A stretch of DNA of 64,000 nt from Escherichia coli (GTDB taxonomy: Bacteria; Pseudomonadota; Gammaproteobacteria; Enterobacterales; Enterobacteriaceae): the NCBI RefSeq assembly GCF_036507355.1, contig NZ_AP027877.1, one strand, 5' to 3'. Shown here piece after piece: positions 1 through 56,271 of this stretch. The position numbers were made by a program, and so were the translations under genes. Within the stretch, counting starts at the first letter, position 1. Each line of letters starts with the position of its first letter. The notes beneath the pieces are model-generated. The model worked only from the letters and a program-made list of their open reading frames with translations. It searched no databases and was not told where the DNA came from.

Positions 1-2434
1 GCGTAGTGTGCGCACTGGTCGCCTGCGCCAGCTGCGAAGTACCGATGTCGATTGTCAACACGTTGGGGTTACCGTATTTGCACAGCGCACCAGGCTCGCC
101 GCCTTTATCTGGATCGTACCATGCCCCTTCGTGAATTCGCGCCACGCCGGGTGTATAGCGATCAGAAACTACTGCCCCTGCCAACACCTGACCGCGAGCG
201 TTAAAGACGCGTACCACATCACCGTTACGAATACCGCGCGCGCTGGCATCCTGCGGGTTAATGAACACTGGCTCTTTACCCGCTATCGTATATTGCTGAC
301 GCAGAGTTTCCGACTCACATAACTGCGAGTGAAGTCGGAAATCCGGATGCACAGATTGCAGATGCAACGGATACTTCTGCGAGCCGGGCCCACCGTGGGA
401 GCGTTCGATTTTCTCAAACCACATCGGATGCCCCTGACAATCGTCGTAGTTCATATCGGCGATGGTTTTCGAATAGATCTCAATCAGGCCACTCGGCGTG
501 CCCAGCGGTTCGAGATCCGGATCTTCGCGGAATGCCTGGTGGCGAACAAACATCTGCGGATGGTCAAACTCGACGTACTCTTTGTTATTCCAGAAGTCAT
601 CAAACGCTGGCAAATGAACGCCGCGTCCTTTGCCTTGCTGAACACCTTCCTGCCAGATGCGTTTCAGCCAGCCCATTTCGTCCAGCCCTTCGGTAAAGGC
701 TTCTTCGCGATTAAAGCGGCGGCACAGCTCGCGGAAAATATCAAAGTCGTTGCGCGCCTCGAACTGCGGCGGCACGACCTGTTTCATGGCGATAATGCCA
801 CGGTTGGAGTGGTTGCCGTACTGGTCGAGATCGTTACGCTCAAACTGCGTGGTCGCAGGCAGCACGATATCGGCAAAGCGGCAGGTTGAGGTCCACTGGT
901 TATCTATGGCGATAACCGTTTCCAGCTTGCGCCAGCCTTCAATAATGCGGTTGATCTGCTGATGGCGATGGAATGGGTTAGTTCCGGCAAAAATACACAT
1001 TTTCAGCGGCGGCAGTTTTACCGATTTACCGTTCCAGTTGATCACTTTCCCCGGTTCGAGGATCGCATCGATAAAACGGGCAATCGGAATGGTGCTGCTG
1101 TAGCCTTTGTAATCACTGTTGTCGTGAACAGGCGGAATCGACGTAGAGCCGGAGAAACCACTCAGAATAACGCCTTTACGCCCCGGCGTGCCTGCGCCGT
1201 TATAGTGCCAGCCAAAACCAAAGCCACCACCTGGCAGGCCAATTTGCCCCAGCATCGCCGCCAGAACCACAATCATCCACGCCCACTGTTCACCGTGCTG
1301 CATACGCTGTACGCACCAGCCAGCAATAATCTGCGTTCTGTTCGCCGCCATCTGCCGCGCCAGCCCACGAATGGTTTCGGCATCAATGCCGGTCAGTTTT
1401 TCAGCCCATGCGGCATCTTTCGGCTGACCGTCTTTCTCGCCCAGCAGATACGGCAGGAACTGCTCAAAACCCACACAGTAGTTAGCGAGGAAGTTTTTGT
1501 CGTACAGGTTTTCACTGTACAGCGTATGCGCCAGCGCCAGTTGCAGCGGCACGTCAGTTTGCGGGTTAACCGCAATGTGCTTCACATGCTCGCGCCCCAG
1601 ATACTCATGGGTGGATGTAACAACCGGATCGATGCTAATGACCTCAATTTCACCGGCGGCGACTTTCGCTTTCAACTGCGCGTAATATTCATAAACATCG
1701 TGATCCGGGCACCACCAGTTCGCTTGCTGGTTTTTCAGCAAATCGGAGCCCCACAGCACAATGGTTTTGCTGTTCTTCAATACCAGCGGCCAGGAGGTTT
1801 GCTGTTCATACACTTCCATCGAACCGACTACGCGCGGCAGGATCACCTGCGCAGCACCAGTAGAGTAATCTCCGCCCGTACCAACGCTATTACCATGCAA
1901 GGCAATAGCTTTCGCCAGCATCCCCGAAGCGTTATGGAACATCCCCGTCGATTGCCAACCACTGGCGGTCAGCAAGGCACTCGGCCCGTGAGTTTTCTGT
2001 ACGCGTTCCAGTTCTTCATAGAACATGTCGAGGGCTTCATCCCAGCTCACACGCACAAAACGGTTATCACCGCGCTGGGAGGTGTCGCTCAGATGGCGCT
2101 TACGCAGCCAGTCCACGCGTACCATCGGATAACGAATACGCGCCGCGTTGTGTACGTGGTCCGGCAATCCGGCGATCATTTTCGACGGATATTTATCCAG
2201 TTCGAACGGTTTTGCCGCCACAAAGCGACCATCCTTCACCGTCGCACGGATAGCCCCCCAGTGCGACCCGGTAAGAATGCCCTCTTTCGAGATGACAGCC
2301 TCAGTCGCCGCTTGCGCCGCAGTCGCACGGCGCGGCGTTAACAATGACGGCCCCAGCATCCCGGCGACGGTTAAGCCGCCGAGTTGTGCCAGAAAACGCC
2401 GACGTGATGCCTGAAAGATATCGTTATTGTTCAT
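1..2434 (-). CDS. torA: TMAO reductase catalytic subunit TorA (molybdopterin), C-terminal ~37 aa cut by window edge
   Basis: Reverse-strand translation starts MNNNDIFQASRRRFLAQLGG (twin-arginine signal) at 2434; ATG overlaps torC stop by 1 nt; plus-strand ORFs here are shadow ORFs. Confidence 0.93.
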   Translation of the reverse strand, partial: MNNNDIFQASRRRFLAQLGGLTVAGMLGPSLLTPRRATAAQAATEAVISKEGILTGSHWGAIRATVKDGRFVAAKPFELDKYPSKMIAGLPDHVHNAARIRYPMVRVDWLRKRHLSDTSQRGDNRFVRVSWDEALDMFYEELERVQKTHGPSALLTASGWQSTGMFHNASGMLAKAIALHGNSVGTGGDYSTGAAQVILPRVVGSMEVYEQQTSWPLVLKNSKTIVLWGSDLLKNQQANWWCPDHDVYEYYAQLKAKVAAGEIEVISIDPVVTSTHEYLGREHVKHIAVNPQTDVPLQLALAHTLYSENLYDKNFLANYCVGFEQFLPYLLGEKDGQPKDAAWAEKLTGIDAETIRGLARQMAANRTQIIAGWCVQRMQHGEQWAWMIVVLAAMLGQIGLPGGGFGFGWHYNGAGTPGRKGVILSGFSGSTSIPPVHDNSDYKGYSSTIPIARFIDAILEPGKVINWNGKSVKLPPLKMCIFAGTNPFHRHQQINRIIEGWRKLETVIAIDNQWTSTCRFADIVLPATTQFERNDLDQYGNHSNRGIIAMKQVVPPQFEARNDFDIFRELCRRFNREEAFTEGLDEMGWLKRIWQEGVQQGKGRGVHLPAFDDFWNNKEYVEFDHPQMFVRHQAFREDPDLEPLGTPSGLIEIYSKTIADMNYDDCQGHPMWFEKIERSHGGPGSQKYPLHLQSVHPDFRLHSQLCESETLRQQYTIAGKEPVFINPQDASARGIRNGDVVRVFNARGQVLAGAVVSDRYTPGVARIHEGAWYDPDKGGEPGALCKYGNPNVLTIDIGTSQLAQATSAHTT

Positions 2435-3606
2435 TATTTTTCTTCCTTCTTATCGCCGTGAGCCTTACCTGCGGTGTCAGACGCATTCATTTGCAGATAT
2501 TTCAACAAGGTGCGTTCTTCACGTTTATCGAGGCTGGTAAAGCCGATCATGCCGTTGAGCGTGCCAATCCAGCCGTTAGCGTCAAAGTGAGAGATTTCCG
2601 GTGCGCCGTGGCACTGGTTACAGGTGCCGTTGTACAACGAATCCGCATAAGCCCAGATCGGTTTGATATCGTTCACCATGTCACCTTTCTTCATCCACGC
2701 GGTGGCTTGCAACTTGCTCCACTCGGTATTGGTGTCGGCAACGGTGGTTTTCTCCAGCGTTTTCACCTGCTGCTGCACATCACCACGAATCGAGGCAACA
2801 AAGATGCGTTTACCTGGGAATTGGGTGAGTACACGCTGACGTCCGGCGCTTTCTGTCCAGCCGGTAATTTCAATTTGCAGCCAGTCGCCGTCACGTTTAA
2901 GGACTTTCACTTCCGAAGCAGGCAGCAGTGAACCAGATGCTTCTTTATCGCCTTTCGCCGCATAAATTGGCTTAATATCAATAGAGTACAGCGTGTCACC
3001 ACTGTCATTAGCACTGGCGCGCAGCTCATCGAACTGCTTACGGAAGCCGCTACTCATATCCGGTAACTGGTGGGCAATACCTTTATGACAGTCGATGCAG
3101 GATTGATTATCTTTCGCTGCCACCTTCATCTGACGTGCCGCTTCAGGATGCTGCTTCGCATGATCCATCGCATCGTAGTTATGGCAGGAGCGACAGGTTG
3201 CCGAGTTGTTTTCTTTCATTCGCGCCCATTCACGCTCGGCAAGTTCCGCGCGTTTGGCTTCGAATTTTTCAGGAGTATCAATGGAGTGGGCAATAAAGGT
3301 CTGGTAGATATCGTTGCTCGCTTCCAGTTTGCGCTTCACCATGCCTGGAATATCCGGCGGGATATGACAGTCATGGCATTCAGCTCGCACGCCGGAGGCG
3401 TTCTGGAAATGCACCGACTGTTTATATTCTTCATACACTGGTTGCATACTGTGGCAACTGACACAAAATTCGGTTGTGCTGGTGACTTTGATCCCAACGT
3501 GTGGCAATACAATCAGCGCAATGCCAATCACAATCCCAATAGCGACCAGCGCCAGTACCGACCAACGAGCACTGGGTCGGCGTAGCGCGTTCCAGAGTTT
3601 CCGCAT
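2434..3606 (-). CDS. torC: Pentaheme c-type cytochrome TorC
   Basis: ORF 2434..3654; recognised start MRKLWNAL at 3606; several CxxCH heme motifs in translation. Confidence 0.93.
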   Translation of the reverse strand: MRKLWNALRRPSARWSVLALVAIGIVIGIALIVLPHVGIKVTSTTEFCVSCHSMQPVYEEYKQSVHFQNASGVRAECHDCHIPPDIPGMVKRKLEASNDIYQTFIAHSIDTPEKFEAKRAELAEREWARMKENNSATCRSCHNYDAMDHAKQHPEAARQMKVAAKDNQSCIDCHKGIAHQLPDMSSGFRKQFDELRASANDSGDTLYSIDIKPIYAAKGDKEASGSLLPASEVKVLKRDGDWLQIEITGWTESAGRQRVLTQFPGKRIFVASIRGDVQQQVKTLEKTTVADTNTEWSKLQATAWMKKGDMVNDIKPIWAYADSLYNGTCNQCHGAPEISHFDANGWIGTLNGMIGFTSLDKREERTLLKYLQMNASDTAGKAHGDKKEEK

Positions 3607-3654
3607 AATAGCCCCTGTAAAATTATGGTTTAGTGAAGCGATCTTAATGAGCAA

Positions 3655-3717
3655 ATATGAACAGCGGCACTGGTCAGGATGAATGGCTTACGGCAGAATA
3701 TGAACAGATATGAACAG
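3655..3717 (-). promoter_or_regulatory. tor boxes (TorR-binding decamers) in torR-torC divergent region
   Basis: ATATGAACAG (reverse complement of CTGTTCATAT) at 3655-3664, 3698-3707, 3708-3717; degenerate copy GGATGAATGG near 3678-3687. Confidence 0.8.
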
Positions 3718-3735
3718 AATGAGTAAAACCCTCTG

Positions 3736-4428
3736 ATGCCACATCACATTGTTATTGTTGAAGATGAGCCGGTTACCCAGGCGCGATTACAATCCTACTT
3801 CACTCAGGAGGGGTATACCGTTTCCGTTACGGCGAGCGGTGCCGGGCTACGGGAAATTATGCAGAATCAGCCGGTGGATTTAATTCTGCTGGATATCAAC
3901 TTGCCCGATGAAAATGGCCTGATGTTAACCCGCGCCCTGCGAGAACGCTCAACGGTGGGGATTATTCTGGTTACCGGACGCAGCGATCGGATTGACCGTA
4001 TTGTTGGGCTGGAAATGGGCGCAGACGATTACGTCACCAAACCGCTGGAACTGCGCGAACTGGTAGTACGGGTAAAAAATCTGCTCTGGCGAATCGACCT
4101 CGCGCGACAAGCTCAACCGTACACTCAGGACAACTGCTATCGCTTTGCGGGTTATTGCCTGAATGTGTCGCGCCATACGCTGGAGCGGGATGGCGAGCCG
4201 ATTAAACTGACCCGCGCAGAGTATGAAATGTTGGTGGCATTTGTGACCAATCCGGGCGAAATTCTCAGCCGTGAACGTCTGCTTCGTATGCTCTCTGCGC
4301 GTCGGGTGGAAAACCCTGACCTGCGCACCGTCGATGTGTTAATTCGTCGTTTACGCCATAAACTCAGCGCGGATTTACTGGTGACGCAACATGGCGAAGG
4401 TTATTTCTTAGCCGCTGATGTGTGCTGA
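3736..4428 (+). CDS. torR: Response regulator TorR (OmpR family)
   Basis: 230-aa ORF; receiver domain then winged-helix; matches TorR. Confidence 0.95.
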   Translation: MPHHIVIVEDEPVTQARLQSYFTQEGYTVSVTASGAGLREIMQNQPVDLILLDINLPDENGLMLTRALRERSTVGIILVTGRSDRIDRIVGLEMGADDYVTKPLELRELVVRVKNLLWRIDLARQAQPYTQDNCYRFAGYCLNVSRHTLERDGEPIKLTRAEYEMLVAFVTNPGEILSRERLLRMLSARRVENPDLRTVDVLIRRLRHKLSADLLVTQHGEGYFLAADVC

Positions 4429-5429
4429 TAAAAATAGACCGGACGAAATCCCCCTGGCGACAGCGAGCGGCGGATATGTTCGCGGTCGGCATTTTTCGGC
4501 GTCAGAACTAAAATCGGTGGGCTGACATTATCAGACACCGATTGACCCTGTAATTGCCTGATGGTCTGCTCAACCGCCAGTTCCCCCTGCCAGACCATTT
4601 GATCGCTGGCAGCCATAATCACTCTTCCCCGCTTCAGCCCGCGATACACCTGATGTGAAAGATAAAACGACACCACGGTAAGCGGCGTGTTCAGGTTGCG
4701 CCCTTCACCCATTGCCGCCTCTGCCGCAATGGCCGTTCCGGCAACGACGTCGATTTCTGGATGGCGTTCCAGCATCTCCTGCAACAGGTTACGCTGGATT
4801 TCAATATCGTTATCACCGAGCGCAATATCAACAATACGCACCGGGCTTCCGGCAATGGCTGCGCGAAAACCCTCGACCATCTCCTTACTGCCCCCGGCGT
4901 TATCGGGTCCGGGCATCAACAGCACGTTCAGTGGTTTACCGTGCGCCCATTGCACCAGATATCGCCCAGGTTGATAGCCCATCTGAAACCAGGGTACACC
5001 AACGCGGCTTTTCACCTGGGGAGCATCAATAGCATTTACCAGTTCGATCACCGGCAGACTTGCTACCTGCTTTTGCAGATCGGGAAATGACGTCGTGCTA
5101 CTACCGAGCAAAATGGCCTCTGCGCCCCACTGTTTACACTGGTCGATTTGTGCTTGCTGGGTAGCCAACTGGCTGTAGCCGCCTGCCTCCAGCACTTTTA
5201 AATCCACACCGTAGCGGCGAGCAGCCTCCTGCATACCATAGTTCAACGATAACCAGTATGAATCTTTCAGGCTGGGATAAAGCGCGCACAGTTTCCATGC
5301 GCGTTTGGCTTTAAGCGGCATAGAGGCTTGCACCGTGAAATGCTGCGCATCATGCCAGCGCAACAGGTTATCAGCCGAAAATGCCGGCAACATGAAAAGG
5401 GAAAGAAGTAAAAATAGCAGTACGCGCAT
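4401..5429 (-). CDS. torT: Periplasmic TMAO-binding protein TorT
   Basis: 342-aa ORF with N-terminal signal peptide [19 protein letters not shown]; 3' end overlaps torR 3' end by 28 bp (convergent). Confidence 0.93.
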
Positions 5430-5511: not shown

Positions 5512-8256
5512 GTGAATTTAACCCTGACCCGAAGACTCTGGATGGGCTTTGCCCTGATGGCGCTGTTAACCCTGACCAGTACCCTGGTGGGATGGTACAA
5601 CCTGCGCTTTATCAGCCAGGTGGAAAAAGACAATACTCAGGCATTGATTCCTACCATGAATATGGCGCGCCAGTTGAGCGAAGCCAGCGCCTGGGAACTT
5701 TTCGCCGCGCAGAACCTGACCAGTGCCGATAACGAAAAGATGTGGCAGGCGCAGGGGCGAATGCTCACCGCACAAAGCCTGAAGATTAATGCGTTGCTGC
5801 AAGCGTTACGGGAACAAGGTTTTGATACCACCGCTATTGAACAACAGGAGCAGGAGATCTCCCGTTCGTTACGTCAGCAAGGGGAACTGGTGGGGCGGCG
5901 TCTGCAACTGCGCCAGCAACAACAGCGACTCAGTCAGCAGATAGTCGCTGCCGCCGATGAGATCGCACGCCTGGCGCAAGGTCAGGCGAATAATGCGGCA
6001 ACCTCCGCCGGAGCGACCCAGGCCGGGATTTACGATTTGATCGAACAAGATCAGCGTCAGGCTGCTGAAAGTGCACTCGATCGGCTGATTGATATCGATC
6101 TTGAGTATGTTAACCAGATGAATGAACTGCGCCTTAGCGCTCTGCGGGTGCAGCAAATGGTGATGAATCTGGGGCTGGAGCAGATCCAGAAAAATGCGCT
6201 AACGCTGGAAAAGCAGCTCAATAATGCGGTGAAAATTCTGCAACGTCGGCAAATACGCATTGAAGATCCGGGAGTTCGTGCTCAGGTCGCAACAACGTTA
6301 ACTACCGTTAGCCAATATAGCGATTTGCTGGCGCTGTTCCAGCAGGACAGTGAAATCAGCAATCACCTGCAAACTCTCGCCCAAAATAATATCGCCCAGT
6401 TCGCGCAGTTTAGTAGCGAAGTCAGTCAGCTGGTCGACACCATTGAGCTGCGCAATCAGCATGGACTGGCGTATCTGGAAAAAGCCAGTGCACGCGGGCA
6501 ATACAGCCTGTTATTGCTGGGGATGGTTTCACTTTGCGCACTGATTCTGATCCTCTGGCGCGTGGTTTATCGCTCAGTCACACGTCCACTTGCCGAACAA
6601 ACGCAGGCGCTGCAACGGCTGCTGGACGGTGATATTGACTCCCCTTTCCCGGAAAGCGCTGGCGTACGGGAGCTGGATACCATCGGGCGGCTGATGGATG
6701 CGTTTCGCAGCAGTGTTTATGCACTGAATCGCCACCGCGAACAACTGGCGGCGCAGGTCAAAGCGCGTACAGCTGAATTGCAGGAACTGGTGATAGAACA
6801 CCGACAGGCACGGGCGGAAGCAGAAAAAGCCAGCCAGGCAAAATCGGCGTTTCTGGCGGCGATGAGCCATGAGATCCGCACACCGCTGTACGGTATTCTC
6901 GGCACTGCTCAACTGCTGGCTGATAACCCCGCACTTAACGCCCAGCGTGATGATTTGCGGGCGATTACCGACTCTGGCGAATCGTTGCTGACCATCCTCA
7001 ACGATATTCTCGATTATTCGGCTATCGAAGCAGGTGGCAAGAATGTTTCGGTCAGCGATGTGCCCTTTGAACCGCGCCCGCTGCTGGAAAGTACCCTGCA
7101 ATTAATGAGCGGACGGGTGAAAGGTCGGCCGATTCGCCTGGCAACGGCAATTGCCGATGATGTACCGAGCGCGTTAATGGGCGATCCGCGACGTATTCGT
7201 CAGGTTATAACCAACCTGTTGAGCAACGCCCTACGTTTTACTGACGAAGGGCAGATCGTTTTACGTAGCCGCACTGATGGCGAGCAATGGCTGGTCGAAG
7301 TGGAAGACAGCGGCTGCGGTATTGATCCCGCGAAACTGGCAGAAATCTTCCAGCCATTTGTGCAGGTAAGCGGCAAACGCGGCGGCACCGGGCTGGGGCT
7401 GACTATCAGTAGCCGTCTGGCCCAGGCGATGGGCGGCGAACTGAGCGCCACCAGCACGCCGGAGGTTGGAAGCTGTTTTTGTTTACGCTTGCCGTTACGT
7501 GTTGCCACGGCACCCGTGCCAAAAACAGTCAATCAGGCGGTGCGTCTTGACGGTTTACGTTTGCTGTTAATTGAAGATAACCCGCTAACCCAGCGAATTA
7601 CCGTTGAGATGCTGAACACCAGTGGTGCGCAGGTTGTTGCTATTGGCAATGCCGCGCAGGCTTTAGAGACACTGCAAAATAGCGAACCGTTTGCTGCCGC
7701 ACTGGTGGATTTTGATCTGCCGGATATCGACGGCATTACCCTTGCCCGGCAACTGGCACAGCAATATCCGTCGCTTGTTTTGATTGGCTTTAGCGCCCAT
7801 GTCATTGACGAAACGCTGCGCCAGCGTACCAGTTCACTATTTCGCGGGATTATCCCTAAACCGGTGCCGCGTGAAGTGCTCGGTCAGTTACTGGCGCACT
7901 ATCTCCAACTGCAAGCCAATAACGATCTACCACTTGATGTATCGCAACTCAATGAAGATGCTCTGTTAATGGGGACGGAGAAGATCCACGAATGGCTGGC
8001 ATTATTTAAACAACATGCCCTGCCGCTTCTCGATGAAATCGACATTGCCCGCGCCAGTCAGGATAGCGAGAAAATAAAGCGTGCCGCGCATCAGCTAAAA
8101 AGCAGTTGCTCGAGTCTGGGAATGCGTAGCGCCAGCCAGCTATGCGCACAACTGGAGCAGCAGCCATTATCTGCCCCCCTTCCACACGAAGAAATTACAC
8201 GCAGTGTTGCCGCTCTGGAAGCATGGTTGCATAAGAAAGACCTGAACGCGATTTGA
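5512..8256 (+). CDS. torS: Hybrid sensor kinase TorS
   Basis: ORF 5305..8256; recognised GTG start at 5512 ([12 protein letters not shown]...) gives 914 aa; HisKA motif [10 protein letters not shown], receiver and HPt domains. Confidence 0.92.
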
Positions 8257-9843: not shown

Positions 9844-10016
9844 GGTCAGTGCGTATTTGCAGCGCGACGTTATCAAAGGTGATCATCGTCGATTTACAAA
9901 AAATACACTTAGCGCCCAAAGGGTTTCGCTCCGTCACATCGAATGCCGATGTACGGTACTGTGAACCATGACAACATGGACAGCGGAAATGGAGATGTTG
10001 AGTAATAACGGCAACC

Positions 10017-10229
10017 TTAGAGCGTAACAACGTTCGCTGCCGCGGGGCCACGTTGCCCCTGCTCAATAGAAAATTCAACTTTCTGATTTTCGTTCAGCGT
10101 GCGGAATTCATTGCTCTGGATGGCGGTGAAATGGACGAAAACGTCTTTGCTGCCATCATCAGGAGTGATAAAGCCAAAACCTTTATCTGCGTTAAACCAT
10201 TTTACTAAACCAGTCATTTTATTAGACAT
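10017..10229 (-). CDS. cspG: Cold shock protein CspG
   Basis: 70-aa [26 protein letters not shown], classic CspA-family RNP motifs. Confidence 0.95.
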
Positions 10230-10514
10230 ATTTTACTTCCTTCATTTTGGGCCTTTCGGCAAACAGGGCTTTAATACAGAAACTACTTAGTGTTCAGGAG
10301 AGAGACTCAAAAGAAGGGGATAATGCCTGATAATGAGAACTGCTTTAGTAAACTACTTTGTATGCTGTCTGTCTTTCAAACCGACGCAGCTATTAACGCA
10401 TGATAATAGAGATTAAGCAAATTTTATTTTAGCCGTCCGGCGGTCTTAAATATCGCTGGCTTTATTTTATTAACCCCGTATAGTGCAGCGCAGTATTTTC
10501 AGTAAGGAATTTGT

Positions 10515-55150: not shown

Positions 55151-56161
55151 TTAGATATGGGTAACGATTTCTTTAATCAGCGGCGGACCTTTAAAAATAA
55201 AACCAGAATAAATTTGCACCAGTGAGGCACCCGCAGCAATCTTTTCACGCGCAGCGATAACCGAGTCGATGCCGCCAACACCGATGATCGGTAAGCGACC
55301 GTTTAATTCCAGTGACAAGCGGCGAATAATTTCGGTGCTTTTTAACTGAAGCGGACGACCACTTAAGCCACCGGTTTGATCGCAATTTTTCATTCCCTGA
55401 ACCAGAGAACGATCGAGTGTGGTATTGGTTGCAATAACGCCATCAATATTATGGCGAACTAAACTATCGGCAACCTGGATCAATTCTTCTTCAGAAAGAT
55501 CCGGCGCGATCTTCACTGCGATCGGCACATATTTATGGTGCATCGCTTGCAAATCATTTTGTTTATTTTTAATCGCAGTTAAGAGATCATCCAGCGCTTC
55601 ACCATATTGCAGTGTGCGTAATCCTGGGGTATTTGGCGATGAAATATTGATGGCGATATATCCCGCATAGGCATAGATTTTTTCCATACAAATCAGATAG
55701 TCATCTTTGCCCTGCTCTACTGGCGTATCTTTATTTTTGCCGATGTTAATACCCAGGACGCCGTCATAATGGGCTTTTTTTACGTTCTCTACGAGGTTAT
55801 CAACGCCAAGATTATTAAAGCCCATACGGTTGATCAAACCTTCGGCATCTACCAGACGAAAGAGACGCGGCTTGTCATTACCTGGCTGTGGACGTGGCGT
55901 GACGGTACCGATCTCTATCGATCCAAATCCCATCGCGCCTAACGCATCAATGCACTCCCCGTCTTTGTCAAGACCGGCTGCCAGACCAAGCGGATTTTTA
56001 AACGTCAGGCCCATGCAGTTAACAGGTTTTGCAGGCACTTTCTGCCGCACCAGTGCTTCAAACGGTGTTCCGGTAATGCGGCGTAATTGCTGAAAAGTAA
56101 ATTCATGAGCGCGCTCTGGATCGAGCTGGAAAAGGGCTTTACGAACGAAGGGGTAGTACAT
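55151..56161 (-). CDS. pyrD: Dihydroorotate dehydrogenase (quinone)
   Basis: ORF 55151..56188; recognised start [21 protein letters not shown] at 56161 (336 aa). Confidence 0.95.
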
Positions 56162-56271
56162 GAACTCTCCTGGATTCCCGGTGTGCAAACCGGGGGCGTA
56201 TTATGTGCGAGTTCGGACCAAAAGGGAATTGACCTGCGGCAAAAAAAACGCAAACGTTTTCCGAACCTGTT

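Follow-up and report, generated by a model that had tools for sequence, protein, structure and literature searches.

The beginning of the analyzed E. coli sequence, a 64-kb stretch to which we refer as the window, carries tor genes on both sides of a divergent intergenic region (Table 1). Gene coordinates were taken from E. coli ET350, which is 100% identical to the window over 561 bases around the boxes. The gap between torC and torR is 129 bp long (3607-3735), lies between genes assigned as TorC and TorR equivalogs and contains all four tor boxes, so the intergenic distance given in an earlier note on this DNA stands. The same note placed torD outside of the window in an operon cut at its start, which is indeed the case since torA already crosses this border. 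The part of torA that is present has no stop codons among its 811 codons, while TorR, TorC, TorT and TorS are complete, full length and near to their K-12 versions; all tor genes of the window being intact, nothing points to a decaying tor system. TorR differs from K-12 only in S46P and H129Y, hence its residues 130-230 are those of K-12, and its DNA-binding domain is intact in this comparison. It also scores on the ArcA, OmpR and PhoB models, with ArcA as the second-best family, in all three cases below the cut-off, which points to membership in the same superfamily. The number of amino acid differences from K-12 is 26 in TorS versus 1-3 each in TorR, TorC and TorT, i.e. the sensor is far more polymorphic than the other Tor components. 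The convergent torR and torT overlap at their 3' ends by 28 bp (4401-4428), likewise in K-12.

Table 1. Positions of the tor genes, tor boxes and putative promoter elements in the window.
Feature	Position	Strand	Basis and remarks
torA	1-2434	-	annotation transfer from E. coli ET350; last ~112 nt missing (cut by window start)
torC	2434-3606	-	NCBIfam NF011606 TorC equivalog, 883 bits (cut-off 455); first torCAD gene
probable torC -10 hexamer TAAGAT	3641-3646	-	invariant in 12 of 12 aligned sequences, four genera
tor box4	3655-3664	-	CTGTTCATAT; exact match; promoter-proximal; 48 bp upstream of torC ATG
candidate torR promoter	3671-3699	+	TGGTCA (3671-3676), 17-bp spacer with box3, CAGAAT (3694-3699); direct reading
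tor box3, degenerate	3677-3686	-	CCATTCATCC (+ strand GGATGAATGG); K-12 counterpart CCGTTCATCC
tor box2	3698-3707	-	CTGTTCATAT; exact match, identical to K-12; abuts box1 in tandem
tor box1	3708-3717	-	CTGTTCATAT; exact match, identical to K-12; published box sequence (PMC9239176)
torR	3736-4428	+	NCBIfam NF008034 TorR equivalog, 427 bits (cut-off 275); OmpR-family response regulator
torT	4401-5429	-	ET350 annotation transfer; above NCBIfam TorT equivalog cut-off
torS	5512-8256	+	ET350 annotation transfer; above NCBIfam TorS equivalog cut-off

The array had been described in the earlier note as three exact decamers with one degenerate copy, two of the decamers being in direct tandem beside torR, and a tor-box motif scan of the whole window returned exactly this. 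The plus strand decamer ATATGAACAG occurs three times in 64 kb (boxes 4, 2 and 1), each time in the torR-torC gap and altogether within 63 bp. In 100 dinucleotide-preserving shuffles of the window, taken as the chance level, the mean number of exact copies was 0.09 and none of the shuffles reached at least three. The tandem pair of box1 and box2 stops 18 bp short of the torR ATG (3736). With up to two mismatches allowed, the window has 61 matches (48 expected), and these form no further cluster of tor boxes. Box3 agrees with the consensus in 6 of 10 positions and its match alone is at chance level; we take it as real because of its position, phase and conservation and not because of its score. 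Counted in the torC direction the boxes start at offsets of 0, 10, 31 and 53 bp and are four direct repeats in one orientation. These offsets amount to approximately 0.95, 2.95 and 5.05 helical turns at 10.5 bp per turn, which puts all four boxes on one side of the helix. A possible fifth box in tandem to box4, TTGCTCATTA (3654-3645, 6 of 10 positions), was rejected as its core is not conserved, and so were cryptic half-sites, each placed 10 bp ahead of box3 or box4, where the alignment with K-12, read by eye, gives 4/10 and 0/10 matches, respectively.

Tor boxes 1-4 of the K-12 torR-torCAD intergenic region were characterised by Simon et al. (1995) and Ansaldi et al. (2000). In these studies box1-box2 is reported to be the site of high affinity and to extend over the start of torR, and high- and low-affinity sites reportedly must share a helical face. 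Alignment of the window gap, in the torC direction, to that of E. coli K-12 MG1655 showed no indels and three substitutions, one in box3 (3684) and two in the torC 5' leader (3620 and 3611), the leader alleles being common to E. albertii and E. whittamii. Gap length, box order, orientation, spacing and flanking genes are the same as in K-12, and boxes 1, 2 and 4 as well as the -10 region downstream of box4, TTGCTCATTAAGAT, are identical, whereas box3 changes from CCGTTCATCC to CCATTCATCC and the leader differs at the two mentioned positions. The published decamers are CTGTTCATAT for box1, box2 and box4 and CCGTTCATCC for box3 (PMC9239176). The decamers consequently align with the characterised tor boxes base for base, at the same spacing and with no indel, as the earlier note had supposed, and its assignment to the known torR/torCAD architecture holds with one refinement, a box3 that matches in 6 of 10 positions here versus 7 of 10 in K-12. 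All but 10 of the 5426 complete E. coli genomes (5416) have the segment with the boxes.

No sigma-70 promoter or terminator was detected in 3500-3850 by a consensus scan, in which the torR candidate stayed below threshold; absence of a strong sigma-70 match is what one expects from an activator-dependent promoter. The torC -10 element has been placed inside TTGCT(nnnn)AAGAT (PMC10845959), and we prefer TAAGAT as the probable -10 hexamer because of its conservation across genera and its fit with this description. CATAAT (3627-3622) is a better-looking -10 but was rejected, as it is not conserved across genera, unlike TAAGAT. With TAAGAT as the -10, torC transcription would start near 3633-3634, and the boxes would then lie at approximately -31/-22, -53/-44, -74/-65 and -84/-75 relative to this predicted start. 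On the opposite strand the pair of TGGTCA and CAGAAT, in which TGGTCA and positions 1, 2, 5 and 6 of CAnnAT are conserved across genera, is weakly promoter-like and would start torR near 3706, within box1-box2. If torR starts there, bound TorR could block RNA polymerase. In the torC leader together with the early coding region (3560-3634, minus strand), where the two leader differences from K-12 lie, an RNA element that responds to bis-MGD has been suggested (PMC10845959). A structured RNA was not supported in this stretch, since its fold is no better than that of shuffled sequences (z = +1.41), and no Rfam match was found in the torC leader.

The tandem box1-box2 20-mer CTGTTCATATCTGTTCATAT was scanned in one genome per species, which gave 20 loci. 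In 15 of them, from five genera (Escherichia 4, Salmonella 2, Edwardsiella 4, Providencia 3 and Grimontia 2), it adjoins torR and/or torC homologues. Since loci were picked by this 20-mer, invariance of box1-box2 across genera is circular. Independent of the selection are the other invariants in the intergenic alignment of 12 sequences from Escherichia, Salmonella, Edwardsiella and Providencia, namely TTCATAT of box4, TTCA of box3 (3680-3683 in the window), TGACCAGT and TAAGATC. There are no indels from box1 to TAAGAT in this alignment, while both leader regions, i.e. the 5'UTR flanks, diverge. The four-box layout is kept together with TAAGAT in Salmonella, Edwardsiella and Providencia, and the layout alone in Grimontia, where TorR is only ~53% identical and yet the box offsets are 0, 10, 31 and 53. 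Salmonella enterica subsp. arizonae and diarizonae have the decamers, the 129-bp gap and the spacing of the window. Salmonella enterica differs from the window in the stretches that separate the boxes and in those beyond them. In Providencia vermicola (L011, 2150-2290) the offsets are 0, 10, 41 and 63, with 10 bp more between box2 and box3; this is one extra helical turn, and so a natural spacing variant in which the phase is preserved. The inserted stretch, TTATTCACAT, is itself box-like. The 20-mer was also present as an exact copy in five MAG contigs (L006, L008, L012, L014 and L020) assigned to Bacteroidales, Lachnospiraceae, Synergistaceae and Clostridia, and no TorR- or TorC-like gene was found near it in the fetched flanks. 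In one of them, L008, three tandem copies and one more, degenerate copy lie where the DNA seems to be non-coding, an array that may be an operator of an unrelated regulator.

Origin of the repeats by chance or by slippage, which can create a 10-bp tandem duplication, would leave them without function, and the mentioned five unrelated MAG contigs, which carry the 20-mer with no tor genes nearby where ~0.5 occurrences are expected (298 Gb, both strands), could be taken to speak for it. Against it stand three exact copies and an in-phase fourth where 0.09 copies are expected, the presence of the segment in nearly all complete E. coli genomes, and the fact that box4, the core of box3 and the distances between boxes are conserved across genera where the flanks diverge; on these statistics and this conservation we exclude such an origin, giving it a practically negligible probability. 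The repeats might also serve a different regulator, such as ArcA, FNR or NarL, instead of TorR. ArcA is the closest paralogue of TorR, reads direct repeats and was the second-best family match for TorR, and ArcA-like and weak FNR-like motifs have been noted in the torC promoter (PMC10845959). Repression of TMAO reductase by NarL was also reported (PMC1805755), and a lone heptamer similar to that of NarL, TACTCAT, is situated just upstream of box1 (3725-3719, minus strand). This heptamer is, however, single, its conservation does not extend to other genera, and it is probably there by chance. The torCAD promoter region was bound in vitro by TorR-P and not by ArcA-P or FNR (PMC10845959), and genomic SELEX gave a single TorR peak genome-wide, in the torR/torC spacer (PMC5934670). 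A regulator other than TorR is for these reasons very improbable, and the 3655-3717 segment is almost certainly the TorR operator of the divergent torR/torCAD control region, with boxes 1-4 oriented towards torC.

The variant base in box3 is T3684 on the plus strand, a G-to-A change in the box. The K-12 45-mer around box3 was found as an exact match in 5121 of 5415 E. coli genomes and the 45-mer with the window allele in 107 of 5416, i.e. in ~2% of complete genomes. Its rarity could mean that the change partly disables the operator, through weaker cooperative binding of TorR-P and a lower or altered induction of torCAD, all the more since the changed G, which stands ahead of the invariant TTCA core, is kept in all other 11 of the 12 aligned sequences (four genera), and since box3 alone is already too weak to be bound by TorR in vitro: in EMSA with the Salmonella system box3 by itself was not shifted by TorR, unlike boxes 1, 2 and 4 (PMC9239176). 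We regard a partly disabled operator as unlikely, because box4 of Providencia (CCATTCATAT, CTATTCATAT) and that of Grimontia (ATATTCATAT) naturally show the same G-to-A change in the third position of the box, and because the tor genes beside the array show no damage. Any effect of the window allele on regulation in this strain would probably be small. More speculative, and in our opinion less probable still, is that the change represents a natural regulatory variant which would alter the induction threshold of torCAD or how much its induction varies between cells, or that the strictly conserved inter-box sequences TGCCGTA and TGACCAGTG would have a function beyond torR promoter elements.

Operators of the OmpR/PhoB family, such as pho boxes and ArcA repeats, bind winged-helix regulators head-to-tail on direct repeats of ~10-11 bp, with the promoter-proximal site near, or in place of, a poor -35. 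The window shares with them the 10-bp tandem repeat and the response regulator gene nearby, but its consensus is different. Specific to tor is the split layout, with a distal pair of high affinity and, at intervals of two helical turns, two isolated boxes of low affinity. The TorR operator of Shewanella oneidensis was reportedly described by Gon et al. (2002) as a TTCATA-N4-TTCATA direct repeat, a single tandem pair and not a four-box array. Box1-box2 (CTG-TTCATA-TCTG-TTCATA-T) agrees with it in the half-site core and in the tandem spacing of 10 bp. Salmonella that is Dnd-positive has DndCDE as a competitor for the GTTC/GAAC cores (PMC9239176); no dnd genes were seen within the window.

Several observations were made elsewhere in the window. 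Compared with E. coli ET350, the elf (ycb) fimbrial operon (60000-63900) is broken up. An IS1 is inserted within elfC at 61270-62037, and the ET350 flanks overlap there by 8 bp, which resembles a target duplication; ~192 bp of elfC are also absent near 60066. In place of ~694 bp including elfA there is another IS1 at 63111-63878, a diverged copy with 91% identity over its first 300 nt. Matches at the level of the Rfam gathering threshold were obtained for a thermoregulator leader of the cspA type, located upstream of cspG (9963-10385, minus strand), a PyrD leader (56156-56229, minus strand) and a tRNA-Ser (29205-29289, plus strand).

The element at 3655-3717 is an already known, characterised and ordinary one. 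According to the established E. coli model, TorT and TorS would sense TMAO, which leads to phosphorylation of TorR. TorR, phosphorylated or not, would sit on the tandem high-affinity site of box1 and box2, which overlies the torR promoter and start region, and since this region is covered, occupancy would repress torR. TorR-P would then cooperatively fill the weaker box3 and box4 and from there activate the weak torC promoter with TAAGAT as its -10. Negative autoregulation of torR has been reported (PMC9436347; PMC2820520), and activation of torCAD by TorR together with autoregulation of torR, as proposed in the earlier note, finds support in the same literature.

From all this we can conclude that the window carries a textbook operator, through which a respiratory operon is activated and the gene of its own regulator negatively autoregulated, and which also serves as a TMAO sensor promoter in synthetic biology. 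Beyond correct annotation the significance is slight. Modest additions are the rare box3 allele in the window strain, the phase-preserving 10-bp insertion in one species, and the four-box geometry, which is conserved from Escherichia to a genus of Vibrionaceae.
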